Shown here one piece after another: positions 1,457 to 58,420 of a stretch of DNA of 64,000 nt. The notes below the pieces were generated by a model that worked only from the letters and a program-made list of their open reading frames with translations, ran no database searches and was not told the origin of the DNA. Made by a program: the position numbers and the translations under genes. Position 1 is the stretch's first letter, and every line of letters begins with the position of its first letter. Location of the stretch: positions 13,037 through 77,036 of the forward strand of contig CAZQNK010000002.1 in NCBI GenBank assembly GCA_964594955.1. The letters run 5' to 3'. The stretch is from an uncultured Clostridia bacterium (GTDB taxonomy: Bacteria > Bacillota > Clostridia > Christensenellales > Borkfalkiaceae).

Positions 1457-3274
1457 TCAGTCGGCGGCATCGGGAACGTTTATAAGGTAATTAAGATAAG
1501 CCCTGATATAGTTCTTCACTTCATCGGAAATTTCGTCGCTGTCAAGCAGCTCGTTCAACTTCTGACGGTATCCGCTGTCAAGCAATTCCGCATAGAAGGT
1601 ATATTCGCCCGTTTCGGGATTGTAGATGTAATCGTTGCCGGGATAAAGCGTTTCGCCCGTACCGTCGCCTCCGGGGCCGCTGATTTCGGGGTCGGTACTG
1701 CCTTCGCCCGATTCTGAGGAACCGTCGTTGACGGCGCGCCCGACCACGTCTACGCCGAATATACTGCCGAGAGTAGTTCTTATGTATGCGTCCGCCATGT
1801 AAGTATAGGCCTGCGTCTGCATTGCGGGAACGGAATTTGCTATAAAAGTATGGATAGCGCCGTCGTTTCCGCTTCCGTCGCCGGCTATTTCCGTTATAAC
1901 TTTGGAAAGCTGGTATTTAACGGCGCCCGTGCCGTTATAACGCGAATATGCCGTATAAGACGTGCTGTAAAGGTCGTAAACCGCGTCGTACAAAGCGTCG
2001 CCCGAAGCGATTTTTTCGCGCGAACCGCCGAACTTTACTCCGCCGTCAATGAGCGCGTCGTAATATTCTTTCAGCCCGTCGGATTTAAGCGCGGCCGCAA
2101 GCGCATTGACGAATGTCGACAAAACCCCGTCGGCGTCTTCATCGGTAAGCTTGTACACGACGCCGCCGAACTCGTCTCCCGCAGATTGGATGTAGCCGTC
2201 AATCTTGTTGAACAGCTTATCGTTTACTTCGGAAAGAACGCTGTATGACGTGAGCACGGTATTTATATCCTTATAAGCCGCGGCGCCGCTTCTTAAAGCG
2301 TCGGAAAAGTAAGTTTCCTTTCCCACGGTCAGGCTATAAGCTATATCGTCGTAGGTGTTTACATCTATCGTGGTTTCCGAAACGTCATACATCGACTCCT
2401 GCACATACTGCGTGACCGCCGGGGCGGTTATGCCCTCCGAAGTGAGATCCGATAGCAGCCCGTCAAGCGTTTCCGCATAGGACTCCGAGGCTGTTTCGAC
2501 GAGAATCGTATCCCCCTCCACGTCCTTTATAAGCGCACGAAGCCGCGCAAGCAGCTCCTCTTTTACTTCATAAGGAATTTCCGCCTGCACGGGAGCGCTG
2601 CGCAGGGGCAAGGCCACGCCTGCGACGAACAGCGCAACGGCAACTGCCGCCGCAGCCGCCTTTAAAACGATGTTTACAGCCGTCGGTTTGCGCGCGGGCA
2701 CCGCTTTAAGAGAGGTTTCCGTATCCTCCCTCTGCTTATCGAGCATTGCGCCCTGCTTGCCTTCGTACTCTATCATGGTCTGCGTCTTTTCGTCGAGCGC
2801 ATGTATTCTGTCCAGCTTTTTGGCAAGTTTTTTATCCGTGGGGCGCAAAGCGAAGAAAACGGTTGCTCCGCATACCGCCGCCGCGCATATTCCCGCCAGA
2901 AGATAATAATACCACGCCAATGCGACGGCGCAGGTTTTCAGCGCCAAAAGCAACGCGCCCGTAACGAGGAGCCCGCACAAAATTCCGCACGCCGCTCCGC
3001 AGACGACGGCGCGCCGCAGATATTTTCGTTTCAGTTTATCGAACTCGCCGTGCTCGGCAGGCACGACCACCGTTCCGCCGTCTGCACGTTTGTTTTTGCC
3101 CTTCCGCTTATTTTCGCTTTTCAGTATATTTTCGCTCTTCCGCTTTTTCCTGTGTTCCTGTATGATAAGAACCGCGTCGATCGCGCCCGAAACGACAGCC
3201 AGAACGGTAAAAACGATGAAACACGTCATAAGGGTACTCTTGGGAATACCTATTGCAAGCAAAATTTCAGCCAT
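1457..3274 (-). CDS. multi-pass membrane protein of unknown function carrying the shared N-terminal anchor module (copy A)
   Basis: 605 aa. N-terminus MAEILLAIGIPKSTLMTCFIVFTVLAVVSGAIDAVLIIQEHRKKRK, then a Lys-rich loop, further hydrophobic helices (about aa 90-150 and 205-225), and a roughly 380-aa acidic domain with no motif I recognise. GGAGGG SD before the ATG. The gene ends 96 nt upstream of the moxR start on the same strand. Confidence 0.75.
   Translation of the reverse strand: MAEILLAIGIPKSTLMTCFIVFTVLAVVSGAIDAVLIIQEHRKKRKSENILKSENKRKGKNKRADGGTVVVPAEHGEFDKLKRKYLRRAVVCGAACGILCGLLVTGALLLALKTCAVALAWYYYLLAGICAAAVCGATVFFALRPTDKKLAKKLDRIHALDEKTQTMIEYEGKQGAMLDKQREDTETSLKAVPARKPTAVNIVLKAAAAAVAVALFVAGVALPLRSAPVQAEIPYEVKEELLARLRALIKDVEGDTILVETASESYAETLDGLLSDLTSEGITAPAVTQYVQESMYDVSETTIDVNTYDDIAYSLTVGKETYFSDALRSGAAAYKDINTVLTSYSVLSEVNDKLFNKIDGYIQSAGDEFGGVVYKLTDEDADGVLSTFVNALAAALKSDGLKEYYDALIDGGVKFGGSREKIASGDALYDAVYDLYSTSYTAYSRYNGTGAVKYQLSKVITEIAGDGSGNDGAIHTFIANSVPAMQTQAYTYMADAYIRTTLGSIFGVDVVGRAVNDGSSESGEGSTDPEISGPGGDGTGETLYPGNDYIYNPETGEYTFYAELLDSGYRQKLNELLDSDEISDEVKNYIRAYLNYLINVPDAAD
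3125..3274 (-). repeat. shared 5' cassette, copy A (SD + ATG + about 50 codons)
   Basis: Hand alignment gives about 87% nucleotide identity to 8756-8905. Same reading frame and same peptide. Confidence 0.85.
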
Positions 3275-3413
3275 TTTCGCCCTCCTTCCGCGTTTTTCCG
3301 CAATATAACGCTTATATAAATATAACGTTTATATGATAGTTATATGATAAGTAAATGAATAAAAAAATAAATAAATAATAAATAAATGAATAAAAAAGAA
3401 TAACGATCGGCGC

Positions 3414-3722: not shown

Positions 3723-6700
3723 ATGAACCCCGTTTTAAGAAAAGGTTTGATTGCCGTCCTTTCGTTGTGTTCGGCGGTATGCCTGGCGTTGGGCGTAGCC
3801 GCCTGCGGCGGCGGCCACAATTTCAGTGAGAAATGGTCGTCGGACGACGTTGCCCACTGGCACGCCTGCACAGACAAAGGCTGCAACGAAAAAAGCGACT
3901 ATGAGGAGCATACCCCCGCCGACGAAGGCACCAAAGTGGATGAATATATTTACTATACATGCGAAGTTTGCGGGAAGGAGTACCGTTCCGAATCGGCAAC
4001 TTATATAGTCAACGTCAAAAATATCGGCAAAGCGGGCATAAGGGGCGTATCCGTTTCACTGTACGACGAAAGCAATAATCTTCTCTCTACCGAAACGAGC
4101 GGCACGGGCGGCATAGTAAGGTTCCGTAACCTGAAGGCGGCAAACTACAAAGCCGTTGTCGACGCAACTACCATTCCCGACGGATATACTTGCGGCGAAG
4201 AAGCTCTTACGCTTGATTTTACTGCGGACGTAAGGGCAGAGACGGTGTACCTGACTCCCCATCTTATAACGGATAAGGAAATGCCCACCGGCACGAAATA
4301 CAGCCTCGGAAGCGTTGTATACGACTTTGAATACACCGCATACTACAACGACGGGGCAAGCAGCACGATAAAACTTTCCGAGTATCTTAAAAATTATAGT
4401 GCGGTAGTTCTGCAGTTCTTCTATACGGGATGCTCTCCCTGCAGGGAGGAATTCCCCTATATCAATAAGGTTTACAACTACACCGCCTCCACAACGGGCG
4501 AAAATTACTATGATAAAATCGGCTGGATAGAGTTTGACTCTCCCACGGCGGGCGATACTCTCGGCGTTATGCAGAATTTTATTACGAGCAGCTACGGATT
4601 TGACAATTTTGCATACGTCTACGATGAAGCGCGCTACGATACTAATTTCGGCGTTACAGCCTATCCCACCACGGTAGTTATCGACAGATACGGCGTCGTT
4701 GCATATTATGAGTCGGGTTCGCAGCCCTCGTATTCGCCCTGGATTAAACTGTTTGAGTACTATTCTTCGGACGATTATGCGCCCAATTACTCCTCTTCCG
4801 GCGGCAGCTCGGACAGCGATACGGACACTACGGTGATACCCAACGTAACTATGCCCGACAGCAGCGAGTTTGTCGAATCTATAGTCACAACAGACGACAA
4901 ATACACCTTTGCCGACACGTTCACCTTCTCGCCCTACTCCGATGAGGACGGCAATCTTGACATATACAGCTGGCCCTGGCTTGTAAGCGGCAAAGACGAC
5001 GACGAGATAGACAGCATAAGCGATTACATTTATACCTCTAACGCCCATGAGTTGGGCACCTATTCCATACTTGTAATAGACGTTCAGCTTGAAGAGGGTC
5101 AGGTGTTCATGTTCGATTACTTTACTTCGACCGAACCCGGCAACGACATACTTTACGTACAGGTAGATACCGTTCTGCAAGCGCAATTATCGGGCGAGGC
5201 GGAAGGTTGGAAAACCTTCTATTATGTCGCCGCACATACGGGCAGTTATCAAATTACCCTGACTTATAGCAAAGACTCATCGATTGACGTAGGCGACGAC
5301 AAGATTTACGTTTCCAACATGCGCCTCGGGCTTGCCGAAGAGATTAAGGATAAAAAACTTCCCACGCCCGACCTGCTTTACAATGCGGCGACCGCCTATA
5401 CGGCGGAAGAGGGCAACACATACGGTCCCGGCTACGGCTATTCAGATTATGTAAGCGTTTATCTTTCCTCGGACGGCTACTATCATGTCGACCTTTACAA
5501 CAAGGGTAAGAGCGACGGCGACAGCCCCGACGGCGATCCCTACCTGCTTGCAGACCTGACCCATACCACCCCTTGGAACGCCACGTACAGCGTCTGGCTT
5601 TACGCCTACGTCGTACTTCATTCGGAAGATACCGACGGTTCAGGCGACAAAGATGGCATTCTTTACAAAAACCGTGCCTATGCGGAAGCTTTGGAGGACT
5701 ATTCCTGGGTACAGAACAACTGCGATTGGAACTATGTGCCCGTAAACGAGGAGCTCGCCACGATAATCAAAGCCGTAGTTAACTCATACGGAACCGAACG
5801 GCAGAAGACCAACGAAAACCAGTGGCTGGAAGTTTGCCGTTACTTTATACACTACGGGGCGGCCCATTCCGACGGCGACAGCTGTTACGCGAACGACAAC
5901 CTCGCCCTGACGTACGGCAATAGGATGCCCCTGTATTCGGGAGAAGTGAGCGACGAGAACTCGGAAGGCAACGAGCGGATAATTCACGTAGAAGTTAAAG
6001 CTCCCGTCATACCGCGCGGCTTCTATTACAGCTTCACTGCGAAAACCGACGGCGTATACCTCGTTTACACCAATGAAAACGCCGACGAAACAACTGTGGA
6101 TCCCTACGTATGGGTGGCGAAAGCCGACGGAGAGTTTATCGCAGAAAACGACGACTTTGACCTTTCGGTAATCTATTCGGGATATATAAGCGCAAAAGAC
6201 TCCGAAAAATATGCGTACAACAGCTATATACGCGTTTATCTTAAAGCGGGCGAAATTTATATGATATGCGGAGCCGTTGCCGAAGACGATGGCAATTTCG
6301 ACGTTTACATCAGATATTTGGGCAAAGAACTTACCTATTTCACCCCCGTTTCGGACGATTACATCTACACCTACATCTACAACTACGACGAAGAAACCGA
6401 CGAAGAAACCTATGAAATTTACTATCCCACGTTCTTCTCCGACAGATACGGTGTGGACGACGAAGGTTTCTACGCGGTGAACGACGACGGAACAAAATCC
6501 CCTATTTATATAAATATGACGGGAACAACCTATTACCAGATAGGGTACGCCGGGATGACGTTAGCAGATATGATCGAGAATGACTACTGGACGGGAGCTA
6601 ACAACGTTAAGATGCGCGATTACCTGAATATGGCGAAAAACAACACCGACGTTACCGTCGACGGCATATCTTTGGCGGGCTTTGTACGCGCCGACGAAAC

Positions 6701-6848
6701 GATTGCCAAAATACTGAATGATGCAATCAACGGCGGAAGTTCAAGCGAGGTGGCCAACTATTGCTCCAACGCCTGGATGTTGACGGCGTTCTACGAGAGA
6801 ACCATAAACGCCTGGTCGGCAGCGCAAGACGAGGACGAAGACGAATGA
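3723..6848 (+). CDS. large surface lipoprotein with a Cys/His-rich module, Ig-like beta-sandwich, TlpA/ResA-like thioredoxin domain (CSPC) and a long acidic C-terminal region
   Basis: 1041 aa. Lipobox LGVAA|C (Cys28). HNFSEKWSSDDVAHWHACTDKGC...YYTCEVCG module at aa 31-88. VNVKNIGKAGIRGVSVSLYDESNNLL..GGIVRFRNL is CarboxypepD_reg-like. FFYTGCSPCREEFP (CSPC at nt 4431-4442) and AYPTTVVIDRYG form the thioredoxin fold. There is a PPC-like segment DPYVWVAKADGEFIAENDD. Confidence 0.85.
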   Translation: MNPVLRKGLIAVLSLCSAVCLALGVAACGGGHNFSEKWSSDDVAHWHACTDKGCNEKSDYEEHTPADEGTKVDEYIYYTCEVCGKEYRSESATYIVNVKNIGKAGIRGVSVSLYDESNNLLSTETSGTGGIVRFRNLKAANYKAVVDATTIPDGYTCGEEALTLDFTADVRAETVYLTPHLITDKEMPTGTKYSLGSVVYDFEYTAYYNDGASSTIKLSEYLKNYSAVVLQFFYTGCSPCREEFPYINKVYNYTASTTGENYYDKIGWIEFDSPTAGDTLGVMQNFITSSYGFDNFAYVYDEARYDTNFGVTAYPTTVVIDRYGVVAYYESGSQPSYSPWIKLFEYYSSDDYAPNYSSSGGSSDSDTDTTVIPNVTMPDSSEFVESIVTTDDKYTFADTFTFSPYSDEDGNLDIYSWPWLVSGKDDDEIDSISDYIYTSNAHELGTYSILVIDVQLEEGQVFMFDYFTSTEPGNDILYVQVDTVLQAQLSGEAEGWKTFYYVAAHTGSYQITLTYSKDSSIDVGDDKIYVSNMRLGLAEEIKDKKLPTPDLLYNAATAYTAEEGNTYGPGYGYSDYVSVYLSSDGYYHVDLYNKGKSDGDSPDGDPYLLADLTHTTPWNATYSVWLYAYVVLHSEDTDGSGDKDGILYKNRAYAEALEDYSWVQNNCDWNYVPVNEELATIIKAVVNSYGTERQKTNENQWLEVCRYFIHYGAAHSDGDSCYANDNLALTYGNRMPLYSGEVSDENSEGNERIIHVEVKAPVIPRGFYYSFTAKTDGVYLVYTNENADETTVDPYVWVAKADGEFIAENDDFDLSVIYSGYISAKDSEKYAYNSYIRVYLKAGEIYMICGAVAEDDGNFDVYIRYLGKELTYFTPVSDDYIYTYIYNYDEETDEETYEIYYPTFFSDRYGVDDEGFYAVNDDGTKSPIYINMTGTTYYQIGYAGMTLADMIENDYWTGANNVKMRDYLNMAKNNTDVTVDGISLAGFVRADETIAKILNDAINGGSSSEVANYCSNAWMLTAFYERTINAWSAAQDEDEDE

Positions 6849-7288: not shown

Positions 7289-7777
7289 ATGAAATTTTTC
7301 AAAAAAATATTCCTGCCCGTTCTTGCGGCGGTCTGCGCATTTGCGGTTTGTCTTTCTTTCGCCGCCTGCACCGAAACTACGGAAACTCCCGTTACAGAGG
7401 AGCCGCTTGATAAATACAGCAAATACGCCGACGAAAACGACGATACCAACTGGGATTATACGACGTATGTTATCTATCTTGAACTGCCCGACGGCGCGTC
7501 AGCGGCAGACGTTTATGTGCAAATTTGCAGCGGATCAAATTGTTTACCAACTAGGACAAACGAAGACGGCAGAGCAAGCGTAACTTTCCCGTCTTCACAA
7601 CAAAATCAGAAAGTATATATCCATTTTAATGATAAGTATGATAGCAACTATGAAAACATAATTGGTTATGATATACCCGAATGTTGCGAAATCCCCAATG
7701 GCAGTACAGAACAAGACGGCAAAGCCGTTTGGTTTTTAAACGAGAAGGTTACGACGCTTAAGTTTGTAGCCGCATAA
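7289..7777 (+). CDS. small lipoprotein, unknown function
   Basis: 162 aa. MKFFKKIFLPVLAAVCAFAVCLSFAA|C lipobox (Cys27). AGGAG SD 7 nt upstream. Flanked on both sides by the same about 95-nt repeat. Confidence 0.75.
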   Translation: MKFFKKIFLPVLAAVCAFAVCLSFAACTETTETPVTEEPLDKYSKYADENDDTNWDYTTYVIYLELPDGASAADVYVQICSGSNCLPTRTNEDGRASVTFPSSQQNQKVYIHFNDKYDSNYENIIGYDIPECCEIPNGSTEQDGKAVWFLNEKVTTLKFVAA

Positions 7778-8019: not shown

Positions 8020-8047
8020 GCCGCGCGGCTTTTGAAAGCCGCGCGGC
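8020..8047. terminator. bidirectional GC-rich hairpin
   Basis: gccgcgcggctt-ttga-aagccgcgcggc, a 12-bp stem and near copy of 6908-6937. A T-rich run follows on the plus strand. It lies 34 nt past the stop of the minus-strand TlpA-like gene. Confidence 0.55.
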
Positions 8048-8080: not shown

Positions 8081-8905
8081 TCATTCGTCCAACAGGGATC
8101 TTACGTCCTGAAAGAAACTTTCCGAAACTTTATCCGGATATCTGAACCGCTCAACGCCATTTCTATCGAGAACGACCGTCATCGGATATGTGTTTTTACC
8201 GCCGAACGCGTAATACATGGAACCGTCGCCGCTGTTATCCCAGGTAAAGCTTACGTTATCGTAATACTGAAATTCCCACTTCATTCTTTTAGTAACATAA
8301 TTTTCAAGATCGTTATTATCATAACTCGTATCCACCGTACTTGAATGGATTACCACCAAGGAAATATCTTCGGGATATTCCGCGGCAAACGCGCCGAATT
8401 CGGGCAATTCTTCCTGACAGGGCTGACAGCCCATATACCAGAAGTTGAGTATCACTATCTTGCCCGCGTCCAGATCGTCCTGCAAGGTATAAGTTGCGTC
8501 CTCTTCTCCGAAATACTTCTTCATTGTAAAGCTTTCAACAGTATCGCCTATCTCGTAACTTGTGGACGCAACCGTTTCTTTATGGAAAACGTTATAGTAA
8601 ACCAAGACCGAAAGAAGAAATACCAACGCAACCGCCCAGGCAACCGCTTCCAAAATGAAATTGCGCTTTTTAACGTATTCCGCCGTGCCGCGGTAAGCCT
8701 TCCTCTCTGCGCGTTCCTGCGCTTTTATAAGCGCTTTTTCATCCGTCACGACTTCTTTTTTGACTTCGCCTTTTTTCCTGTTGTGTTCCTGAACGATAAA
8801 CACCGCGTCGATTGCACCCGTCACGACTGCGAGAACGGTAAAAACGATAAAACATGTTATAAGGGTACTCTTAGGAATACCTATTGCAAGCAAAATTTCA
8901 ATCAT
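8081..8905 (-). CDS. membrane-anchored TlpA/ResA-like thiol-disulfide oxidoreductase (CQPC) with the shared N-terminal module (copy B)
   Basis: 274 aa. MIEILLAIGIPKSTLITCFIVFTVLAVVTGAIDAVFIVQEHNRKKG, a charged loop, and a second TM helix (ILEAVAWAVALVFLLSVLVYY). The thioredoxin fold shows KIVILNFWYMGCQPCQEELPEF (CQPC at nt 8417-8428) and TYPMTVVLDRNG. The start overlaps the upstream stop by 8 nt (ATGATTGA). Confidence 0.85.
   Translation of the reverse strand: MIEILLAIGIPKSTLITCFIVFTVLAVVTGAIDAVFIVQEHNRKKGEVKKEVVTDEKALIKAQERAERKAYRGTAEYVKKRNFILEAVAWAVALVFLLSVLVYYNVFHKETVASTSYEIGDTVESFTMKKYFGEEDATYTLQDDLDAGKIVILNFWYMGCQPCQEELPEFGAFAAEYPEDISLVVIHSSTVDTSYDNNDLENYVTKRMKWEFQYYDNVSFTWDNSGDGSMYYAFGGKNTYPMTVVLDRNGVERFRYPDKVSESFFQDVRSLLDE
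8756..8905 (-). repeat. shared 5' cassette, copy B
   Basis: 10 mismatches in 151 nt against 14833-14982 by hand alignment (about 93%). Similarity ends right after the Lys-rich codons. Confidence 0.9.
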
Positions 8906-10049
8906 CTTTCGCTCCCTCCGCGCTTACGGACGAGTTGAATTCGCTCCCGCCGACCTCTGCACCGTCTAATCGGGCATCGCGCGTCGGTTCTTCCGAAAGG
9001 CATTGAGCAGACAGTACCTCTCCCGCCGCGCCCGTCTGCGCGCCTGCACAGGTTCCGCCCTGAGCGTTAAGGCTGAGTGTTCCGCCCTTTTCAGTACTGC
9101 TTGAAACAAGCGAGCTGAGCGCAACCTTTTCGCCTGCGGCGCTGTCTCCCCCTTCCTCTATGGCGTTCGCATGCAGGAAAATTTTACTTCCCTTCCAACT
9201 TATCGCCTTAGTGGGGCAAACTTTAAGGCAGTCGCCGCAATGTATGCACTCATGGTCGCCAACGTGGCGTATGTCCATTTTACAGGTCTGTATACACAGT
9301 CCGCAGTCAACGCATTTTTGCTTGTCCAACTTTATGCCCAGCATCGCAACGCGGCAGAAAAAGCCGTATATCGCGCCGAGCGGGCACAGGAACCTGCAAA
9401 AAATTCTGTAAATGAATATGCTGCCCACTATTATCAGCACCAATACGCAGAACTTCCAGGTGAAAAGCGGGCCGAGCATGGTATAAAAATCGTCGTTGTT
9501 GCCGTTCGCAAGCAGGGAAACCGAGCCGAGCAGCGTTCCCGAAGGACATATGTATTTGCAGAATGCGGGTATTGCGCTGCTTATGCCCGAATATGCCAGC
9601 GGAATTATTATTACAAGCACGGCAAGCAATACGTATTTGAAATACGAAAGAACCCGCGTGATCCTGTTCTTTTTGACCTTAGGGGTCTTTATTTTATACA
9701 ACAATTCCTGTATAAGCCCGATGGGGCACAAAAAGCCGCAAATCGTTCTGCCCAAAAGCAAGCCGAAAAGTATTATTATGCCGAAAACATAGAAGGGCGC
9801 CTTCGTGTTGGACGCCGCCAAAGCGTTCTGCAACGCGCCCAAAGGGCAAGCGCCTATCGCGCCGGGGCAGGAATAGCAATTAAGACCGGGAACGCACAAA
9901 TACTTTGTGTTGCCCGTATAAATCGAACCGGATACAAAGCCCTTTATGTTTGCGTTATATAAAAGCGCCGCATAAAGCTGGATAAGCCTCCTTTTGGAAG
10001 GTCTGTGGGCAACGAACCAATCTTTTATTCTAACGAAAAATTTTTTCAT
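8898..10049 (-). CDS. polyferredoxin-type 4Fe-4S membrane protein (COG0348 / NapH-YccM-like)
   Basis: 383 aa. Repeated membrane-flanking Cys motifs: CYSCPGAIGACPLG, CGFLCPIG, CKYICPSG, CRFLCPLG. Two ferredoxin motifs: CVDCGLCIQTC and CIHCGDCLKVCP. Ends with an A/G/S-rich tail of about 95 aa. Confidence 0.85.
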   Translation of the reverse strand: MKKFFVRIKDWFVAHRPSKRRLIQLYAALLYNANIKGFVSGSIYTGNTKYLCVPGLNCYSCPGAIGACPLGALQNALAASNTKAPFYVFGIIILFGLLLGRTICGFLCPIGLIQELLYKIKTPKVKKNRITRVLSYFKYVLLAVLVIIIPLAYSGISSAIPAFCKYICPSGTLLGSVSLLANGNNDDFYTMLGPLFTWKFCVLVLIIVGSIFIYRIFCRFLCPLGAIYGFFCRVAMLGIKLDKQKCVDCGLCIQTCKMDIRHVGDHECIHCGDCLKVCPTKAISWKGSKIFLHANAIEEGGDSAAGEKVALSSLVSSSTEKGGTLSLNAQGGTCAGAQTGAAGEVLSAQCLSEEPTRDARLDGAEVGGSEFNSSVSAEGAKDD

Positions 10050-10050
10050 A

Positions 10051-10869
10051 TCACCCCAGCCCTATACACTCCGTGCAAATATTCACGGCTTTTAACAGAA
10101 CGTCGCCCGCTCCGCCGTTCGATATTCCGAGTATAACGAACAAAACCCCGACGGCGAGCAAAACGCCGCGCATCGTCCATATGTATTTATCGCTTTCCAA
10201 TGCGACGACCGCCGAATAATACGCGCGCTGTAACCTGCCTAAACTTTTATCGTCCTTTTTGCCCAGCGCGACAAGTTTTTTGATATGGGGAAGCTCCTTC
10301 TTCGCGCCCCAACCTTCATATATAACCGCGCCTATGCACAGCGCAAACGCACAGATAACGTAGGGACAAATCTTTATGACCGCCGTTTTGATGTCCTCTG
10401 TAGGGTCGGGACCTCTGAAATGGCTGAAATCCAGCATATATACAAGCCCTGCGACGGCGAATATCGCGCAACCGACGGCGGCTACGCCCCAGACTATCTT
10501 TAAAATACGCTCGTACTTTGCGACCTGCGCCGCCTCTTCCTGCAACCCGCCTTCCGCCTTGACGGGCAGCTTTTTGCGCAATCTGTACAGGGAATACCTT
10601 ACGTCCTGCCCGAACTTTTTCTTGCCCTGTGGAGGAAAAACTTCCCATATAACCACGCCTATTATTATCATGGCTACCCAAATCCAGAAAGGCGCGGCGA
10701 TATATCCGAGGCGGTTATATACTATTTCACGGGTAAAGGGTTTGCCCCCGCCGCTACCGAAATAAATATCGCAGACTTCATAAATAAAAAGCGCCGCGAC
10801 TGTCGCAGTCATAAGGCTGAATATTATCGAATAGACAAGGCGGACCGCACGCGCTTCTTTTTCAGCCAT
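10051..10869 (-). CDS. 5-TM membrane protein with a C-terminal CXXC tail (CD1871A-like motif)
   Basis: 272 aa and hydrophobic throughout. It ends ...GISNGGAGDVLLKAVNICTECIGLG, which resembles the tail of small CXXC proteins annotated next to COG0348 proteins (from memory). The stop is 1 nt before the next ATG. Confidence 0.7.
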   Translation of the reverse strand: MAEKEARAVRLVYSIIFSLMTATVAALFIYEVCDIYFGSGGGKPFTREIVYNRLGYIAAPFWIWVAMIIIGVVIWEVFPPQGKKKFGQDVRYSLYRLRKKLPVKAEGGLQEEAAQVAKYERILKIVWGVAAVGCAIFAVAGLVYMLDFSHFRGPDPTEDIKTAVIKICPYVICAFALCIGAVIYEGWGAKKELPHIKKLVALGKKDDKSLGRLQRAYYSAVVALESDKYIWTMRGVLLAVGVLFVILGISNGGAGDVLLKAVNICTECIGLG

Positions 10870-11015
10870 TTTTAACCTCCGTTGAAATTTCTAATTAACC
10901 GATAGATAATATATAATAAAATAATTATACCAACAGGCGCGGAATTAGTCAACAAATTTAATGTAATCCGTGTTCACAGCCGATAAAGATATGCGCGTAA
11001 ATATCTGATTATCGC

Positions 11016-11044: not shown

Positions 11045-11076
11045 TAATGTACATAACATTTAAGGCAAGGGAAAAT

Positions 11077-12342
11077 ATGGAAAAGAACGTTTACGACAAA
11101 TATACGGGCATACTTAAAGCCGAGCTTTTGCCCGCTATGGGTTGCACGGAGCCGATAGCCGTCGCATATGCGGCGGCGCTTGCAAGGGCGACTCTCGGCT
11201 GTGTTCCCCAAAAAGTAGACGTGTGCGTCAGCGGCAACATTTTGAAGAACGTTAAAAGCGTAATCGTGCCCAACACGGGCGGCATGCGCGGAATTATTTC
11301 CGCTGCGGCGGCGGGAATAGTTGCGGGTGACGAAACCAAACGCCTGCAAGTTCTTTCAGAGGTGACGGCGGAGCAATACGGGAAAATTTCGGACTATATA
11401 GAAAGAACTCCGTTCAGCGTAACAAAATCGCACTCCGGCTGTGTGTTCGATATAGGAATAACCGTTTTTGCGGAAGGGCACAGCGCGTATGTGCGCATAG
11501 CCGAACGCCACACAAACGTTGTGTGCATTGAAAAGGACGGGCAGACGGTGGTTCACAACGACGAAACCCCGCAGGATGAAAAAAGCAAAGCCGTATTATC
11601 CGTTGAGGAGATAATAGAATTTGCCGACAGCGTAGAAATTGCCGATATCGAGGAGGTTTTATCGAGGCAGATAGCTTATAATTCCGCCATATCTGCCGAG
11701 GGATTGAAGAACGACTACGGCGCGAGAGTGGGCAAAATTCTGCTTGCAAGCTTCGGCAACGGAGTTAATAACCGCGCCAAGGCGGCGGCAGCTGCGGGAA
11801 GCGACGCGCGCATGAACGGCTGTTCGTTGCCCGTTGTAATAGTTTCGGGAAGCGGAAATCAGGGAATTACCGCCTCTTTACCCGTGATTGTATACGCCGA
11901 ACATTTAGGCGTGCCGAGGGAGACGCTTTTAAGAGCGTTGGCGGTTTCCGACCTTGTGACGGTTCATTTAAAATCGGGCATAGGCAGTCTTTCCGCATAC
12001 TGCGGGGCAGTAAGCGCGGGGTGCGGTGCCGCGGCGGGCATATGCTATTTGCACGGCGGCAGATATGAAGAAATTTCACGTACGCTTAAAAACGCATTGG
12101 CGATAGATTCGGGCGTAATTTGCGACGGAGCGAAATCGAGCTGTGCGGCCAAGATAGCTTCTGCGGTGGAAGCGGGGCTTTTGGGGTTTGAGATGTGCCG
12201 CAACGGCAGTGAATTTTGCGGCGGCGACGGAATACTTGAAAGAGGCGTTGAAAACACCATACATAACGTAGGGGATCTTGCAAGGATAGGCATGCGTGAA
12301 ACCGACGAAGAGATTATAAAAATAATGATTAAAAATATTTAA
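11077..12342 (+). CDS. L-cysteine desulfidase family protein (UPF0597 / YhaM-like, serine dehydratase alpha-like fold)
   Basis: N-terminus MEKNVYDKYTGILKAELLPAMGCTEPIAVAYAAALA...VSGNILKNVKSVIVPNTGG is typical of UPF0597. Length is about 421 aa. I moved the start from 11047 to 11077. Confidence 0.8.
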   Translation: MEKNVYDKYTGILKAELLPAMGCTEPIAVAYAAALARATLGCVPQKVDVCVSGNILKNVKSVIVPNTGGMRGIISAAAAGIVAGDETKRLQVLSEVTAEQYGKISDYIERTPFSVTKSHSGCVFDIGITVFAEGHSAYVRIAERHTNVVCIEKDGQTVVHNDETPQDEKSKAVLSVEEIIEFADSVEIADIEEVLSRQIAYNSAISAEGLKNDYGARVGKILLASFGNGVNNRAKAAAAAGSDARMNGCSLPVVIVSGSGNQGITASLPVIVYAEHLGVPRETLLRALAVSDLVTVHLKSGIGSLSAYCGAVSAGCGAAAGICYLHGGRYEEISRTLKNALAIDSGVICDGAKSSCAAKIASAVEAGLLGFEMCRNGSEFCGGDGILERGVENTIHNVGDLARIGMRETDEEIIKIMIKNI

Positions 12343-13463: not shown

Positions 13464-13703
13464 TTATGCCTTCAACCACAGGTACGCCAAAATGTACATC
13501 AATAACCCTACTATGATAATTATGCCTATCACGGGGGCAAACGCCTCAAAAGCGCCGCGTATCATTTTGCGCTGTTCGCTTTTGCTTATCTTGGGTTTTT
13601 CTTTGCCGCCCTTTTTTTGCGGGTCATAGCCCCGCATACCCTCGACGTTCATATCGGCGAACGTCGTTTCGGTATCCAAATCGTCCTTACGCTTTTTGCG
13701 CAT
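13464..13703 (-). CDS. small tail-anchored membrane protein, unknown function
   Basis: 79 aa. Charged N-terminal part, then the single helix FAPVIGIIIIVGLLMYILAYLWL. Overlaps the upstream ABC ATPase gene by 17 nt. I recognise no homology. Confidence 0.5.
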   Translation of the reverse strand: MRKKRKDDLDTETTFADMNVEGMRGYDPQKKGGKEKPKISKSEQRKMIRGAFEAFAPVIGIIIIVGLLMYILAYLWLKA

Positions 13704-14982
13704 CGGATCTACCCGCCTTTTTGCCTTTCGCCGCCTCAGCTGCCGCTAATGCCGCAAGTTCGTCCTGCTCCTTGGCGAGGCGCAAATACTCCGCCGTCTC
13801 TTCCGCAGTGTTATAAAGGTGGCAGGCGCAGAAATGCCCTTCCTCTATCTCTTTATACGCGGGATTAAAACGCGAGCATACATCCATACAGCTTTCGCAC
13901 CTTGTGTGGAATTTACAGCCTTTGGGGGGATTTACGGGCGAAGGGATATCGCCCTTTAAAATAATCCTGTTCATTTTAACGTGCGGATTGGGCACGGGAA
14001 CAGCGGAAAAGAGCGCCTTGGTGTACGGGTGAAGAGTGTTTTCAAAAATTCTTTCTTTAGAACCGTATTCGACCATACTGCCCAAATACATGACGCACAC
14101 TTCGTCCGATATATGTTTTACAACGGATAAGTCGTGCGAAATGAACACATACGTCAACCCCAATTCACTTTGAAGTTCTTTCAGCATATTTATTATCTGT
14201 GCCTGTATTGAAACGTCCAAAGCGGAAACGGGTTCGTCGCAGATGACAAGTTCGGGTTTCAGCGCCAACGCGCGCGCAATACATATACGCTGTCTTTGTC
14301 CGCCCGAAAATTCGTGGGGATAGCGCCCGAAATAGTGGGACTGCAATCCGCACATTTTCATTATGCCGAGAACGTATTCCTGATAATTTTCTTTTGTACA
14401 GATTTTATGGTGAAGAGCGGCTTCGCCGATTATCGCGCCCACGGTAAGTCGGGGGGAAAGGCTTGCATAAGGATCCTGAAAGATCATCTGCATGTTGGGG
14501 CGGAGTTTATTAAAATCCCTCTCTTTAAGAGCGGAAACTTTTTGTCCCTTGAACCAAATGTCGCCGCCCGTTACGTCGTACAAACGGAGAATGGTTCTGC
14601 CCATGGTCGTTTTGCCGCAGCCGCTTTCGCCGACTATGCCCAAAGTTTTTCCCTTATTTATTTTAAACGAAACGCCGTCCACCGCCCTTAAATACGAAGT
14701 CGGCTTGCCCAAAATATTTTTGCCTGTGACGAAATATTTTTTAAGATCTACAACTTCAAGCAGGGGGTCGGTTTCGGGATTGTAGGGGCGCTCCTCATAG
14801 CCGATTTTTTCATGAGGCACCGCAACCGTCGCTTTTTTGACTTTGCCTTTCTTTCTGTTGTGTTCCTGAACGATAAACACCGCGTCTATTGCGCCCGTCA
14901 CGACTGCGAGAACGGTAAAAACGATAAAACACGTTATAAGGGTACTCTTGGGAATACCTACTGCAAGCAACAATTCAATCAT
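13687..14982 (-). CDS. oligopeptide/dipeptide-type ABC transporter ATP-binding protein (OppF-like) fused to the shared N-terminal TM module (copy C)
   Basis: 431 aa. MIELLLAVGIPKSTLITCFIVFTVLAVVTGAIDAVFIVQEHNRKKGKVKK plus a linker, then GESGCGKTT Walker A, the FSGGQRQRICIARAL signature and LVICDEPVSALD Walker B. The Opp C-terminal domain shows HPYTKALFSAVP and a CxxHxRC motif. Confidence 0.9.
   Translation of the reverse strand: MIELLLAVGIPKSTLITCFIVFTVLAVVTGAIDAVFIVQEHNRKKGKVKKATVAVPHEKIGYEERPYNPETDPLLEVVDLKKYFVTGKNILGKPTSYLRAVDGVSFKINKGKTLGIVGESGCGKTTMGRTILRLYDVTGGDIWFKGQKVSALKERDFNKLRPNMQMIFQDPYASLSPRLTVGAIIGEAALHHKICTKENYQEYVLGIMKMCGLQSHYFGRYPHEFSGGQRQRICIARALALKPELVICDEPVSALDVSIQAQIINMLKELQSELGLTYVFISHDLSVVKHISDEVCVMYLGSMVEYGSKERIFENTLHPYTKALFSAVPVPNPHVKMNRIILKGDIPSPVNPPKGCKFHTRCESCMDVCSRFNPAYKEIEEGHFCACHLYNTAEETAEYLRLAKEQDELAALAAAEAAKGKKAGRSDAQKA
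14833..14982 (-). repeat. shared 5' cassette, copy C
   Basis: About 93% nucleotide identity to 8756-8905. Same ATGATTGA junction, with the upstream gene's stop codon embedded. Confidence 0.9.
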
Positions 14983-16282
14983 TTTTGTCCTCCCCGCCTT
15001 GCCTGTAAAGATAACAGGAAACGCTGTGAGTATCGCTTACCTTGATAAGTTCGGGGTATTTGCCCGCACATTCGGGCTTACACATTTCGCATCTGTCGCG
15101 GAAATAGCAATAATCGGGCATATCCACGGGGTTAGGAACGAACCCCGGTATACAGTACAGCGAATCTACCTCGCCGTCTACGGTGGGTTTGCTCTTTTGC
15201 AGACCTATCGTATAGGGGTGCATGGGGCGGTCGTAAATATCTTCAGCCGTACCCATTTCTATAATTCTGCCCGCGTACATGACCACTACGTAATCGGCCA
15301 TCTCTGCAACAACGCCCAAATCGTGCGTTATAAGCATTATACTGCCGTTGATTTTACCTTTAATGTCGCGCAGAAGGTCGAGTATCTGCGCCTGAATAGT
15401 CACGTCAAGCGCCGTTGTAGGCTCGTCCGCGACGATAAGTTTGGGATTGCACAAAAGCGCCATGGCTATCATGACCCTTTGGCGCATACCGCCCGAAAGC
15501 TCGTGCGGGTACTTTTTGTACACGCCTTCGGGGTCGGCTATGCCGACGAGGTTAAGCATTTCTATACTGCGCTCCTTTACGCGCTGTTTGGAAATGCCCT
15601 CTATATGAAGCTTGCCGACCTCGTCAAGCTGGTTGCCTATCGTAAATACGGGATTGAGGGAGGTCATAGGCTCCTGAAAGATCATTGCGATCTCCCTGCC
15701 GCGGATGGAACGCATAATTTCCGTGGGCATCTTGGCGATATCGACCACCTTCGTTTCCATTTCGTAAAGATTGCCGCCAAGCTCGTTTTTCTTTATGATA
15801 GGTTTGCCTTTTTCGTTCAGCTTGCGCCTTTCGACGCCGTCATCGCCTATTTCCGTTTCATATACGGGAATCTTCCTGCCGCGCCCGTCGCGCTTGAACA
15901 TATTGGAGCGGAAACGTATGCTTCCGCTTACTATCTGCCCGCTGGGCGCCTGAACGAGCTGCATGAGGGAGAGCGACGTCACGCTTTTGCCGCAACCGCT
16001 TTCACCGACGACGCCCACAGTTGAGCCTGCGGGGATATTGAACGTAACCCCGTCCACCGCCTTAACTACGCCCGCGTCCGAAAAGAAGTAAGTGTGCAGA
16101 TCGTCGAATTCGATAATGTTATTATCGTCCTTCATCTGCGTGACGTACTCGCTTTCGTCTGCTTTACGCTTTTTGTATTTTTCAAACTTTTTTATCGCCG
16201 CGGAATTTTCCTTGGCAATGCGTTTGGACTCTGAGCGGGTTATATAATGCTTTTTGTTCTCTTGTTTAAGTTTATCCGCCAT
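14975..16282 (-). CDS. oligopeptide/dipeptide-type ABC transporter ATP-binding protein (OppD-like) with an N-terminal extension and an internal insertion
   Basis: 435 aa. GESGCGKSVTSLSLMQL, LSGGMRQRVMIAMAL, LIVADEPTTALD, HPYTIGL. Extra features are a Lys-rich N-terminal extension of about 55 aa and an insert of about 50 aa (RFRSNMFKRDGRGRKIPVYETEIGDDGVERRKLNEKGKPIIKKNELGG...) before the Q-loop. Confidence 0.9.
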   Translation of the reverse strand: MADKLKQENKKHYITRSESKRIAKENSAAIKKFEKYKKRKADESEYVTQMKDDNNIIEFDDLHTYFFSDAGVVKAVDGVTFNIPAGSTVGVVGESGCGKSVTSLSLMQLVQAPSGQIVSGSIRFRSNMFKRDGRGRKIPVYETEIGDDGVERRKLNEKGKPIIKKNELGGNLYEMETKVVDIAKMPTEIMRSIRGREIAMIFQEPMTSLNPVFTIGNQLDEVGKLHIEGISKQRVKERSIEMLNLVGIADPEGVYKKYPHELSGGMRQRVMIAMALLCNPKLIVADEPTTALDVTIQAQILDLLRDIKGKINGSIMLITHDLGVVAEMADYVVVMYAGRIIEMGTAEDIYDRPMHPYTIGLQKSKPTVDGEVDSLYCIPGFVPNPVDMPDYCYFRDRCEMCKPECAGKYPELIKVSDTHSVSCYLYRQGGEDKND

Positions 16283-16285
16283 GTT

Positions 16286-17371
16286 CTACCTCTTCATTTT
16301 GGGGTCGAAGGCGTCCCTGAGCCCGTCGCCTACGAAATTGAACGCCAATACCGCAAGCGTAATGCAAATGCCCGCGCCCAGCCAGAAGTTGGGATAATAC
16401 TGCAAATTAGTCATACTGTTGGCAGTTTCTATCATGGTGCCCCAGGTGGCGGTGCCCAAAGGCGCGCCGAGATTGAGGTAACCTAACGTTGCTTCCATTA
16501 AAATTACGCTGCCCAAGCCCAACGTCATCGTAACGATAAGTTGGGGAACTACGTTGGGAATGAGATGCCTGAATATTTTAGAGGACGTGGACAGCCCCGA
16601 ACACTTGGCGGCGAGCATGAAATCCTGCTCCCTCAGGGAAAGAATTTGCCCGCGGACAAGCCGTGCCGTGCCTCCCCATCCCATTATCGCCATGATAAGC
16701 ATCATGTAGTACAGCTTATCGATAGTGGTGATGTTGTCGAATATCAGCGACAGTATCAACAGGATAGGCAACGTCGGTATACAGGCGAGAATATCCACTA
16801 TTCTCATTATAAGGTTATCCACCCAACCGCCGAAATAGCCCGAAAGCCCGCCGAAAATTATGCCCAGAAGCGTTTCCACGAGCACTACGACGAAACCTAT
16901 GGTAAGCGAAACCCTGCCGCCGTACATAAGCCGCGTAAAGATATCGTAGCCGTTGGAATCCGTACCCATCCAATGGTCCCAACTTATGCCGTCGTTTGCG
17001 TTGACTGTGGGATAAGTGAACGATACGGCATACGAAACGTGTTCCACGCCGTCGGAATCTGTATATTTTTCTATTTCCGTCATCACGAAAGTAGGCGTGA
17101 TATTTTCGGGATTCTTATCCGATTCTTTTTCTCCCCAAGGGGAAATAAAGGGACCCACGAAGCTGAACAAAAAGAGGGCGAGCAAAATTAAAAGCCCTAT
17201 GACCGACAGTTTTGAACGGAAGAAACGCTTTGCCACCGTGCGGCCGGGGGAGAGAACTTTGACCCTGTCCGTAAGGTTTTCGCCGTGCAGACCTTCGTTG
17301 AAGTTGTCGGGCTGCCCCAAAGCGCCGTCCGCGCCCGTTTCAACCGTGTTTTGCGATATTTGATCTTGCAT
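16286..17371 (-). CDS. ABC transporter permease (OppC/DppC-like)
   Basis: 361 aa. BPD-transport core: SLTIGFVVVLVETLLGIIFGGLSGYFGGWVDNLIMRIVDILACIPTLPILLIL, and the EAA-loop region FMLAAKCSGLSTSKIFRHLIPN. Confidence 0.9.
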   Translation of the reverse strand: MQDQISQNTVETGADGALGQPDNFNEGLHGENLTDRVKVLSPGRTVAKRFFRSKLSVIGLLILLALFLFSFVGPFISPWGEKESDKNPENITPTFVMTEIEKYTDSDGVEHVSYAVSFTYPTVNANDGISWDHWMGTDSNGYDIFTRLMYGGRVSLTIGFVVVLVETLLGIIFGGLSGYFGGWVDNLIMRIVDILACIPTLPILLILSLIFDNITTIDKLYYMMLIMAIMGWGGTARLVRGQILSLREQDFMLAAKCSGLSTSSKIFRHLIPNVVPQLIVTMTLGLGSVILMEATLGYLNLGAPLGTATWGTMIETANSMTNLQYYPNFWLGAGICITLAVLAFNFVGDGLRDAFDPKMKR

Positions 17372-17378
17372 ATGTCAC

Positions 17379-18374
17379 CTACTTTGTCAGTTTGACGCGC
17401 GGGTCTACGAGCGCGTAAGCCAAATCCGAAAGAAGAACGCCAATCACCGTAAGAATGGCCAAAAACATGTTATAGCCCATTATAAAAGGTATGTCGCCGT
17501 CTATCAGCGCGTTGTACGCCGTGCTGCCTATGCCGGGGAGATTGAACACCGTTTCCGTTATCATGGCTCCGCCGAAAAGCCCGGGCAAAGTTCCCGCAAG
17601 CAAGGTAACGAGGGGAATCATGGTATTGCGGAAAACGTGTTTATATACGACTTTCCCTTCCGAAAGCCCCTTTGCGCGCGCGGTGCGGATGTAATCCGCG
17701 GAGAGCACTTCCAGCGTGTTGGTGCGCATATATCTTACGATACTGCCTATGTTGAGAATTACGAGCACGAACATCGGGAGTATGAGATGCAACATCATAT
17801 CCCCGAACTTTGCAAACGTCCAGGACGCGTCGGCATAGTCCGACGAAAAGAGATTGCCCGAAGGAAGCCAGCCCAAATCCAGCGAAAACCACTTTATTAC
17901 AAGGTTGCCGAGGAAGAACGTGGGGAAGGATATGCCTATCATGACGAGCACCGTGACGGCGTAGTCGAGCTTGCCGTACTGGTTGCACGCGCACTTGATG
18001 CCGAGGGGAATGGCTATTATAAGTTCGAGAATGAGCGAAACGAAAGCTATGCCGAAAGATACGCCCATGTTTTCGAATATTATGTCCTCAACGGGTTGAC
18101 CGTACTTCCAGCTTACGCCGAGGTCGCCCTTGAAAACGTTGCCCAGCCAGGTGAAATAACCTTTTATTATCCCCCAGAAGCTGTTGTCGTCCAGACCGTA
18201 AATGGCAAGCCAGCGCTGCAAATCTTCTTCGGATCCGCCGATGGCGTGGGTCGACCAATATTTGTTCTCGACGAAGTTTGTCGGCATACACCTGACGAGG
18301 GTATAAAGTATCACCGATACTCCCAAAAGGATCAATACCGCGAGCAATAATCTTTTTATTACATACTTTACCAT
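17379..18374 (-). CDS. ABC transporter permease (OppB/DppB-like)
   Basis: 331 aa. MVKYVIKRLLLAVLILLGVSVILYTLV... and the EAA loop DYIRTARAKGLSEGKVVYKHVFRN. Confidence 0.9.
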   Translation of the reverse strand: MVKYVIKRLLLAVLILLGVSVILYTLVRCMPTNFVENKYWSTHAIGGSEEDLQRWLAIYGLDDNSFWGIIKGYFTWLGNVFKGDLGVSWKYGQPVEDIIFENMGVSFGIAFVSLILELIIAIPLGIKCACNQYGKLDYAVTVLVMIGISFPTFFLGNLVIKWFSLDLGWLPSGNLFSSDYADASWTFAKFGDMMLHLILPMFVLVILNIGSIVRYMRTNTLEVLSADYIRTARAKGLSEGKVVYKHVFRNTMIPLVTLLAGTLPGLFGGAMITETVFNLPGIGSTAYNALIDGDIPFIMGYNMFLAILTVIGVLLSDLAYALVDPRVKLTK

Positions 18375-18423
18375 TGGTAATTAAAACTCCCGTCATTCGG
18401 GCAAAAGCCCGAAATCAGTTAAA

Positions 18424-35045: not shown

Positions 35046-35156
35046 TTTTTGCTCCGAAAAGAAATACCTCGCCGTCCGCAATTGAGCGGCGAAACTTTAT
35101 GCAACAGCCGTTTTTTGGCGACAATCCTCAGCATTGCACAAAAACGATTATACTAT

Positions 35157-53890: not shown

Positions 53891-53968
53891 TGCGGGGCGT
53901 ACCCCGTTAACGGGCGCCTGTTTTGCGCCCGCTTTATTTAATTTTAAATTAAGCCCGTTAAGGCAAAA

Positions 53969-56103: not shown

Positions 56104-56107
56104 TATA

Positions 56108-56712: not shown

Positions 56713-56723
56713 CTTTTATGCCG

Positions 56724-56858: not shown

Positions 56859-56955
56859 TTTCTTTTTCCTTTTTATTTATTATATTGGTGAACCGACAGG
56901 CATAATCGGTTTATTTGAATCGGCTAATTAATAATAAAGCAAAAAATGCTTACTG

Positions 56956-58413: not shown

Positions 58414-58420
58414 ATTATTT

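Follow-up and report, generated by a model that had tools for sequence, protein, structure and literature searches.

The 64,000-nucleotide (nt) stretch of DNA analyzed here (the window; all coordinates are positions within it) comes from an uncultured Clostridia bacterium and carries, on its minus strand, three tightly packed genes that we call g1, g2, and g3 (Table 1). They encode, in this order, a membrane protein of 272 amino acids (aa) ending in a CXXC tail, a NapH-like membrane polyferredoxin of 383 aa, and a membrane-anchored protein of 274 aa with a thioredoxin-fold domain. An initial annotation of the window had proposed that the three genes form a translationally coupled operon acting as a transmembrane disulfide-reducing relay. 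The packing that it described is found again in the open reading frames (ORFs) and in the junction sequences, with a 1-nt gap between g1 and g2 (GGG TGA t ATG) and an 8-nt overlap between g2 and g3 (AAAG ATG ATT GA). Because a near-consensus promoter-like site precedes g1 and a hairpin follows g3, the three genes look like a single transcription unit. A scan of the entire window against Rfam gave no match, and thus no riboswitch upstream of the operon.

Table 1. Features of the g1-g2-g3 operon and of a nearby redoxin lipoprotein in the window (TM, transmembrane; K+R, lysine plus arginine residues).
Feature	Positions	Strand	Remarks
g1, 272-aa membrane protein, 5 TM	10051..10869	-	predicted N-terminus in, C-terminal tail out
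CD1871A-type module of g1, last TM helix plus tail NGGAGDVLLKAVNICTECIGLG	10054..10164	-	CTEC at 10066..10077
g2, NapH-like polyferredoxin, 4 TM	8898..10049	-	last ~90 residues a low-complexity linker remnant
g2 loop A, predicted outer, composite motif C52VPGLNC58YSC61PGAIGAC68PLG	9837..9896	-	mean 2.5 K+R in 40 aa vs 6-7 in inner loops
g2 predicted inner-face motif C104GFLC108PIG	9717..9740	-	cytoplasmic end of TM2
g2 loop C, predicted outer, motif C164KYIC168PSG	9537..9560	-	
g2 predicted inner-face motif C218RFLC222PLG	9375..9398	-	cytoplasmic end of TM4
g2 cytoplasmic ferredoxin domain, two CxxCxxCxxxC motifs, predicted 2x[4Fe-4S] binding	9213..9314	-	Fer4/Fer4_7 matches
g3, membrane-anchored TlpA/ResA-like thiol-disulfide oxidoreductase	8081..8905	-	C-terminal part of g2 in most relatives
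Thioredoxin-fold domain of g3	8126..8551	-	CQPC at 8417..8428; cis-Pro loop GKNTYPMTV at 8174..8200
Inserted cassette, copy of oppF 5' end: ribosome-binding site, start codon, 50 codons with TM helix	8756..8921	-	
Promoter-like site TTGACT-17 nt-TATAAT, extended TG, 11/12 matches	10924..10952	-	~55 nt upstream of g1 start
12-bp G+C-rich hairpin, T tracts on both strands	8020..8047		likely bidirectional terminator after g3
1041-aa lipoprotein, immunoglobulin (Ig)-like and ResA-like domains	3723..6848	+	CSPC at 4431..4442; 1.23 kb from g3

As the initial annotation had stated, g1 is a five-TM protein with a terminal CXXC tail: hydropathy and AlphaFold secondary structure give five hydrophobic helices plus a tail helix, and its C-terminus reads AVNICTECIGLG, i.e., ...ICTECIGLG-COOH. 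Residues 236-272 match the NCBIfam family NF040920 (CD1871A family CXXC motif-containing protein) with 39.8 bits (E=3e-10, cut-off 32) over model positions 2-38 of 38, and both this score and the succession of a TM helix and a C-terminal CxxC assign g1 to the family. With its 272 aa and four additional TM helices, g1 is not one of the small stand-alone proteins of 40-60 aa; however, the model is of the "domain" type, so that length does not exclude membership. We found no published function for the CD1871A family in the literature, and the AlphaFold model of g1 (predicted local distance difference test, pLDDT, 73.6) gave no meaningful match among PDB structures.

The homologues of g1 fall into 146 clusters, and every named one is from uncultured Clostridia or Anaeroplasma. 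Its distant homologues are otherwise 26-45% identical, and C265 and C268 are the only cysteines invariant throughout (76/76 sequences), lying within a tail of consensus NGG(A/M)xDVLxKA(I/V)NICTECIGLG-COOH. An exhaustive representative search retrieved the tail module in 1285 representative clusters, and it is C-terminal in all but one or two of the 150 best matches listed. The lengths of the CXXC proteins group at 46-70, 145-160, and 250-300 aa, the long form being the commonest.

The product of g2 matches Pfam Fer4_5 (PF12801) with 64.2 bits in two stretches (cut-off 22), as well as the ferredoxin families Fer4 and Fer4_7, and at least 7924 clusters are related to it. It scores far below the NapH/MauN model TIGR02163 (67 vs a cut-off of 213 bits) and the NapH model NF007013 (49.4 vs 234), and far under the cut-off of the NosR model. 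The NapH-type layout is nevertheless present, comprising four TM helices, two CX3CP motifs, and a C-terminal 2x[4Fe-4S] domain; no napA, napG, or other respiratory reductase gene was seen among the annotated ORFs of the window or of the related loci. The initial annotation had counted four CxxxCP(x)G motifs and two CxxCxxCxxxC clusters. Both clusters are there and three of the four motifs are canonical (C104GFLCPIG, C164KYICPSG, and C218RFLCPLG), but the fourth is a composite one, C52-x5-C58YSC61PGAIGAC68PLG. Altogether, 18 motif cysteines are invariant in 86/86 sequences, whereas the three remaining cysteines of the core of the window g2 (residues 1-300) are not conserved. The TM helices lie at residues 19-40, 85-107, 129-153, and 195-221, and each "CP" begins a helix, according to hydropathy and to the AlphaFold2 model of g2, which was built on 85 sequences and of which only the secondary structure was used. 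A Foldseek search of the PDB with this poor model returned nothing (best E=3.5). In a sequence search of the PDB, only generic 2x[4Fe-4S] domains matched, all of them within the ferredoxin domain, so that no solved structure of the membrane module was found by sequence.

The thioredoxin-fold domain of g3 matches AhpC-TSA (PF00578; 38.8 bits, cut-off 26) and Redoxin (PF08534; 30.1 bits, cut-off 26.6). Its active site is FWYMGCQPC, with CQPC at residues 160-163, and it has the TYPMT cis-Pro loop of the TlpA/ResA type; it stays below the equivalog cut-offs for ResA (36.6 vs 170 bits), StoA (28.9 vs 210), TlpA (25.7 vs 230), and DsbE (21.9 vs 123). Its closest solved relatives are 3hdc, StoA, YkuV, ResA, and Etrx. 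A peroxiredoxin reading of the AhpC-TSA match was considered and rejected, given the thioredoxin-type WxxCxPC site and the nearest relatives ResA, StoA, and Etrx.

The question whether these three genes belong together was addressed with two sets of relatives. The first is a species-level set holding one genome per species, in which at least 598 genomes carry a g2-type module; the ORFs of the best 80 loci were called and then scored with phmmer. The metagenome-assembled genomes (MAGs) bearing these 80 loci are overwhelmingly labeled as Clostridia (Borkfalkiaceae, Christensenellaceae, Oscillospiraceae, Candidatus Scatosoma, and others), with a few oddly labeled bins. The second, reciprocal set consists of metagenome contigs seeded with the g1 tail peptide only. 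The cysteine conservation given above, as well as the K+R counts used below, refer to 86 g2 and 76 g1 sequences.

The three genes that the initial annotation had joined turned out to be co-conserved, and as their arrangement is seen again in 80/80 species-level loci, it goes beyond chance. In the species loci, the CXXC-tail gene lies immediately upstream of the polyferredoxin gene in 79 cases out of 80, the commonest junction being an 8-nt overlap; in the 80th locus (L060), it is missing through an artefact of ORF calling. Polyferredoxin and thioredoxin domain form one protein in 73 of these loci; in six, the latter is encoded by the next gene, and one locus is cut off by a contig end. Starting from the tail, the polyferredoxin is found directly downstream in all of the 76 loci with room for it. 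Of the 29 loci that leave 1.9 kb or more of space, 28 have the thioredoxin domain either in the same protein or in the following gene, and in the lone exception g2 is fragmented. The fusion is already seen in relatives at 42% and 36% identity, where the polyferredoxin and the thioredoxin domain form a single protein of 585 and 615 aa, and most of the 120 best g2 relatives listed are fusions of 500-600 aa with Fer4_5, Fer4, and Redoxin domains. The two parts are split in an Anaeroplasma MAG, again with an 8-nt overlap. The thioredoxin-domain CxxC is present in 79/80 loci (the remaining one is truncated by a contig end), as CGPC in 29, CTPC in 27, CDPC in six, and CQPC in two.

The initial annotation had regarded the reductase as something added, in this genome, to a known pair. 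This is not what the comparison reveals: the triad holds for every size of CXXC protein, e.g., in L145, with three proteins of 46, 312, and 174 aa in this order, and in L141 (65, 295, and 173 aa), and the thioredoxin domain accompanies the short (46-69 aa), middle (~150 aa), and long (~270 aa) CXXC proteins alike; therefore, the triad is the unit and the idea of an "added" reductase is wrong. The pairing of a CXXC protein with a COG0348 protein, which the initial annotation had described as conserved but uncharacterized, is real, and we found no paper dealing with it. Judging from gene order and from the Rosetta-stone fusion of g2 and g3, the three proteins are one unit, hereafter called the module.

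Variants of the fusion were also observed. Much longer fusions of 725-838 aa occur in some relatives (loci L012, L014, L035, and L081), and one protein of 666 aa (P0153) contains two thioredoxin-type regions, the first without its CxxC. From these longer and double-thioredoxin proteins, the output end of the module is, in evolutionary terms, apparently plastic.

How the fused gene came to be split in the window can be reconstructed in some detail. The closest g2 relative (P0122; 87% identity, 602 aa) is fused and has the order polyferredoxin, linker, one TM helix, and thioredoxin domain. The syntenic contig of this relative (L172) aligns with the window on both sides of a short interruption (window 10966..8924 with L172 7084..9132; window 8764..8083 with L172 9129..9807), and it is contiguous where the window carries an extra ~160 bp (8921..8756). 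This segment is a 90% copy of the ribosome-binding site and first 50 codons of the relative's oppF. Within the window, it has 93% DNA identity to the 5' end of an oppF-like gene at 14986..14832 and covers the first ~50 codons of g3; a third copy, with 85% identity, lies at 3295..3144 and heads an unrelated 605-aa membrane protein without Pfam match. The ~155-bp cassette (MIEILLAIGIPKSTLITCFIVFTVLAVVTGAIDAVFIVQEH...) thus exists in three copies (8756..8921, 14832..14986, and 3144..3295), all on the minus strand and 85-93% identical at the DNA level, in front of three unrelated genes, i.e., g3, an OppF-like ATP-binding cassette (ABC) ATPase, and the 605-aa protein. In the relative, it is found only on oppF.

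The alignment argues that the g2/g3 split arose by the recent insertion of a portable cassette (ribosome-binding site, start codon, and TM helix) into the linker of a fused gene, and such an insertion accounts for the two-TM form of g3, for its 8-nt overlap with g2, and for the low-complexity sequence at the C-terminus of g2. The cassette behaves, as far as its three contexts tell, like a portable signal-anchor module. The initial description of g3 as a two-TM protein with a CQPC thioredoxin domain is right as to the CQPC, but the two-TM form is lineage-specific and due to the cassette. The split form also appears in a separate Logan contig record (P0121; 383 aa, 99% identity), possibly from the same sample.

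The topology of the module was predicted from hydropathy and from the family-wide distribution of positive charges. In g1, the mean K+R counts are 2.8 (in 10 aa) for the N-terminus, 10.9 for loop 2, and 8.7 for loop 4, predicted to be inside, vs 2.5 for loop 1, 1.1 for loop 3, and 1.6 for the tail, predicted to be outside. The corresponding values for g2 are 6.7 for the N-terminus, 6.4 for loop B, and 4.4 for the segment following TM4 (inside) vs 2.5 in the 40 aa of loop A and 1.9 in the 42 aa of loop C (outside). The single-TM short CXXC forms have N-terminal flanks rich in K/R, and therefore their tails should also be outside. Moreover, the fused proteins have exactly one TM helix between their ferredoxin and thioredoxin domains, which places the two domains on opposite sides of the membrane. 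According to this prediction, the inner face would display the ferredoxin domain, C104/C108, and C218/C222, whereas C52/58/61/68, C164/168, the g1 tail, and the thioredoxin domain would share the outer face. In g3, too, the thioredoxin domain is predicted to be extracytoplasmic from the preceding TM helix and from the single-TM separation seen in the fusions. Had the CXXC tail and the CQPC domain lain on opposite sides, the proposed relay would have been hard to imagine; both are predicted to be on the same side. Export of the ferredoxin domain by twin-arginine translocation (Tat), as in PMC5449189, was also considered and rejected: no twin-arginine motif precedes TM4, and an extra TM helix precedes the thioredoxin domain in the fusions.

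The reading that we prefer is that the operon encodes an iron-sulfur (Fe-S)-driven, DsbD-independent transmembrane disulfide reductase, to which we assign a probability of about 0.6. In such a system, low-potential electrons, with reduced ferredoxin as the probable donor, would enter the cytoplasmic 2x[4Fe-4S] domain of g2 and cross the membrane through the four invariant cysteine motifs of its four-TM NapH-like module, which might either be redox-active dithiols themselves or bind additional clusters. On the outer face, the C-terminal CTEC tail of g1, the obligate partner, might serve as a shuttle, as a resolving dithiol, or as a cluster ligand, and the electrons would then reduce the CxxC of g3, the tethered TlpA/ResA-like domain that is as a rule part of the same protein as g2. 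This domain would in turn reduce extracytoplasmic clients, nearby large ResA-domain lipoproteins being the leading candidates. The core of the original idea, namely electrons passing from an Fe-S membrane protein to a TlpA-like domain within one unit, is supported by the co-conservation, by the predicted same-side topology, and by the lack of a nearby CcdA or DsbD; what did not survive is the notion of an added reductase.

The direction of the electron flow deserves attention since an outward thioredoxin fold joined to a cysteine-rich membrane protein has no inherent direction. The thioredoxin domain might be a DsbA-like oxidase, g2 and g1 acting like DsbB/VKOR and electrons moving inward to the Fe-S domain and then to a cytoplasmic or membrane acceptor, and it is true that many Gram-positive bacteria lack DsbB. 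However, the domain belongs to the TlpA/ResA/AhpC-TSA class with CGPC, CTPC, or CQPC motifs rather than the CPHC type, the transfer from a thiol/disulfide couple to a low-potential [4Fe-4S] cluster is uphill according to established redox potentials, and the module is carried by MAGs of gut Clostridia, which are presumably strict anaerobes. We consider this reversed direction very improbable. The reductive direction is favored because of the TlpA/ResA-like class with its reductant-type motifs (CGPC, CTPC, CDPC, and CQPC), because of the solved structures to which g3 is closest, and because, by the same established potentials, a disulfide is a downhill acceptor for the electrons of ferredoxin-type clusters.

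The polyferredoxin might also be concerned with metals rather than with disulfides. It has a weak match to the CcoG/RdxA/FixG model TIGR02745 (E=5e-4), and in other bacteria copper trafficking involves both CXXC tails and TlpA-like proteins; g2 could then be a CcoG-like metal reductase (acting, e.g., on cupric ions), with the tail and a TlpA/Sco-like domain binding or reducing metal for surface proteins. The CcoG score is, however, 19 vs a cut-off of 317 bits, and no cytochrome oxidase, Sco, CopZ, or P-type ATPase was seen among the Pfam-scanned ORFs of the window or the relatives' phmmer markers, most flanking ORFs being unannotated. In addition, the neighbors that are co-conserved with the module are ResA-domain surface proteins, and we give metal handling very little credence.

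As stated by the initial annotation, the window appears to be devoid of ccdA/dsbD: PF02683 (DsbD/CcdA) has no match in g1, in g2, or in the scanned multi-TM ORFs of the window, a set that left out the two ORFs at the OppB/OppC positions (16286..17371 and 17379..18374). Neither was it found among 50 multi-TM ORFs lying within 8 kb on either side of the 80 related loci. Since the search was confined to these regions, it might be imagined that a CcdA or DsbD encoded elsewhere feeds the thioredoxin domain, which would only maintain exposed cysteines, and that the polyferredoxin and g1 deliver electrons elsewhere, e.g., to a non-thiol acceptor outside the cell; NapH-like modules usually feed flavin mononucleotide (FMN) domains or respiratory reductases (PMC8238504). 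Against this stand the absence of PF02683 genes from the flanks of all 80 loci and the fact that, leaving aside the long linkers of the few larger fusions, thioredoxin is the sole recognized extracytoplasmic domain fused to g2 (73/80 loci), with no match to an FMN-binding domain or a reductase in the Pfam lists of the module proteins or of the neighbors shown. We regard this arrangement as improbable.

A different issue is the role of the g1 tail within the relay. Its strict C-terminal position suggests either a flexible redox arm or a plug completing a site of g2. A specific role of the tail as a redox shuttle is a tentative assignment, to which we give clearly less than even odds. The relay might also be real without g1 being a redox intermediate, the tail acting as a structural plug or as a ligand that completes a cofactor site of g2 while electrons pass directly from g2 to the thioredoxin domain. 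The C-x2-C-I-G-L-G end of the tail resembles the C-x2/3-C-P-x-G motifs of g2 and is always protein-terminal, the short forms dispense with the N-terminal part of g1, and the end of the tail has a low pLDDT when modeled alone, as expected of a segment that docks on a partner. The shuttle model, however, predicts the same invariant cysteines and the same obligate co-occurrence. The structural role seems to us unlikely, albeit a serious contender.

Some considerations weigh against an Fe-S-driven disulfide reductase in general. The support is computational throughout; the topology is based on hydropathy and charge bias alone, and the AlphaFold2 model of g2 is a poor one (pLDDT 58.5; predicted template modeling score, pTM, 0.42). 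The outer cysteine motifs could need Fe-S clusters, and it would be unusual for these to be assembled extracellularly in the absence of Tat export. Lastly, the operon lacks an electron-donor gene, and a CcdA might exist elsewhere in the genome, the search having covered the window and the flanks.

If the operon is indeed a disulfide reductase, its clients might be sought nearby. The second redoxin lipoprotein that the initial annotation had placed about 1.2 kb away is confirmed: the 1041-aa protein has a lipobox (LGVAAC) and a CSPC at residues 237-240. In 41/80 species loci, a homologue of it is encoded no more than 8 kb from the module, and among 44 homologues the CxxC is kept in 39 and a hydrophobic N-terminus in 36. 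This large ResA-domain lipoprotein is likely a downstream client or partner of the relay.

Other genes of the surroundings are worth describing. A small lipoprotein of 162 aa (7289..7777, plus strand), with seven cysteines including a CC pair and only a sub-threshold match to DUF6520, is encoded between the ResA-domain lipoprotein and the terminator of the operon and might serve as a further extracytoplasmic thiol client. Divergent from g1 is a gene of the SDH_alpha/UPF0597 type (11047..12342, plus strand; 431 aa, 13 cysteines, no NCBIfam match), which is putatively cysteine-desulfidase-like. The same divergent arrangement recurs in L001, L008, L014, L017, L021, L023, L032, L074, L081, and L172, but in only 8/80 species loci, and may link the module to cysteine/cystine catabolism in the sub-lineage of the window.

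Beyond this gene is an Opp-type peptide ABC transporter operon (13687..21021, minus strand) with an unusually large solute-binding protein of 865 aa and an OppF with an N-terminal TM anchor, the source of the cassette in g3; the operon is syntenic with the module in the close relatives L001, L003, L014, and L172. It is accompanied by a 2666-aa surface protein (22590..30590, minus strand) with subtilase S8, PA, Ig-like, and BspA-type leucine-rich-repeat domains and a C-terminal TM anchor, and by an adjoining 1463-aa protein (30690..35081, minus strand) with 23 cysteines, an N-terminal hydrophobic segment, and no Pfam match. Together with Opp, these two proteins suggest an island of extracellular proteolysis and peptide uptake beside the redox module. 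The neighbors are compatible with the reduction of disulfides in extracellular proteins or peptides before their uptake, a speculative connection that would be lineage-specific (8/80 and 7/80 loci).

At the opposite end of the window, a MoxR-type AAA ATPase (365..1360, minus strand) adjoins the cassette-bearing 605-aa membrane protein (1457..3274, minus strand). Farther away are jag, yidC, yidD, and rnpA (53969..56712, minus strand), dnaN (56956..58062, minus strand), and gidB (58382..59101, plus strand). Over ~53900..59100, the G+C content falls to 0.37-0.40, and the GC skew changes sign near 58 kb, where it passes from negative values to +0.23. The replication origin of the chromosome is probably located in this region, with no dnaA-sized ORF seen adjoining dnaN.

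The module might be the first Fe-S-cluster-based transmembrane disulfide reductase independent of DsbD/CcdA, in which CX3CP-type motifs and a CXXC tail wire ferredoxin-level electrons to the cell surface; we consider this possible, at somewhat less than an even chance. If so, hundreds of species of gut Clostridia would probably rely on it as their main means of exporting reducing power, and it may represent a ferredoxin-oxidizing electron sink that reduces the disulfides of dietary or host proteins ahead of the neighboring surface protease and Opp uptake. The carriers, i.e., at least 598 species genomes, include the abundant gut lineages Christensenellales and Oscillospirales, and a second, NapH-like Fe-S solution as widespread as this would change the view of envelope redox homeostasis in strict anaerobes. 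It would also explain the role of the CX3CP motifs in NapH, NosR, and RdhC: the natural fusion to thioredoxin is the clearest available hint that these motifs perform or gate thiol-disulfide chemistry. With its two or three genes, the module is compact and hence directly testable.

Such a module can be compared with known systems. To our knowledge, every established electron route to extracytoplasmic thioredoxin folds uses the thiol-only DsbD/CcdA/ScsB family. The module would resemble this family in exporting reducing power to extracytoplasmic thioredoxin folds of the TlpA/ResA/CcmG/Etrx type, and both have conserved cysteines beside a proline in the membrane part; the fused g2 proteins also share with DsbD a thioredoxin-fold domain attached to the membrane domain. 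In contrast, the membrane domain of g2 is unrelated (Fer4_5 and 2x[4Fe-4S], no PF02683), the likely donor would be a low-potential Fe-S protein and not a cytoplasmic thioredoxin, and a separate CXXC-tail subunit is apparently needed. The CcdA-Etrx-MsrAB2 system of Streptococcus pneumoniae (PMC3914529) offers a Gram-positive parallel for thioredoxin-family surface lipoproteins fed across the membrane, and structures of its Etrx are among the nearest solved relatives of g3. There, however, CcdA supplies the electrons and a methionine sulfoxide reductase (Msr) is the client; no Msr gene was seen among the Pfam-scanned ORFs of the window, the flanks of the relatives not having been checked for it. 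Ferredoxin:thioredoxin reductase and HdrB/HdrD share with the module the concept of one-electron Fe-S chemistry reducing a disulfide, but they have no detectable sequence similarity to it, are soluble or face the cytoplasm, and do not transfer electrons across the membrane. The CD1871A family is described by a domain model of 38 positions, whereas in g1 this domain terminates a far longer, 5-TM protein.

The closest comparison is that with the NapH/NosR/RdhC (PceC) modules (PF12801, COG0348), which have four TM helices, two of them with a CX3CP at the cytoplasmic end (PMC8238504, PMC5928378), and which are seen as modular conduits for electrons across the membrane, in most cases joined to FMN domains (PMC8238504). 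NapH and NosR also share with g2 the C-terminal cytoplasmic 2x[4Fe-4S] domain. What the CX3CP motifs of NapH, NosR, and RdhC do has been an open issue since the 2000s, disulfide chemistry being considered likely, and an iron content of 8 Fe in NosR has been read as speaking for disulfides (PMC5928378). Unlike these modules, g2 has two extra invariant cysteine motifs in its predicted outer loops (which NapH is not known to have), a thioredoxin domain as its output in place of an FMN-binding domain or NapG, and an obligate CD1871A-type partner; moreover, its hosts are gut Clostridia MAGs, and the annotated ORFs of the window include no respiratory reductase gene. Our literature searches turned up neither the polyferredoxin-thioredoxin fusion nor the CXXC protein that goes with it. 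All of this is consistent with the idea that the operon belongs to a widespread group of NapH-like conduits whose output would be thiol-disulfide exchange at the outer face of the membrane.

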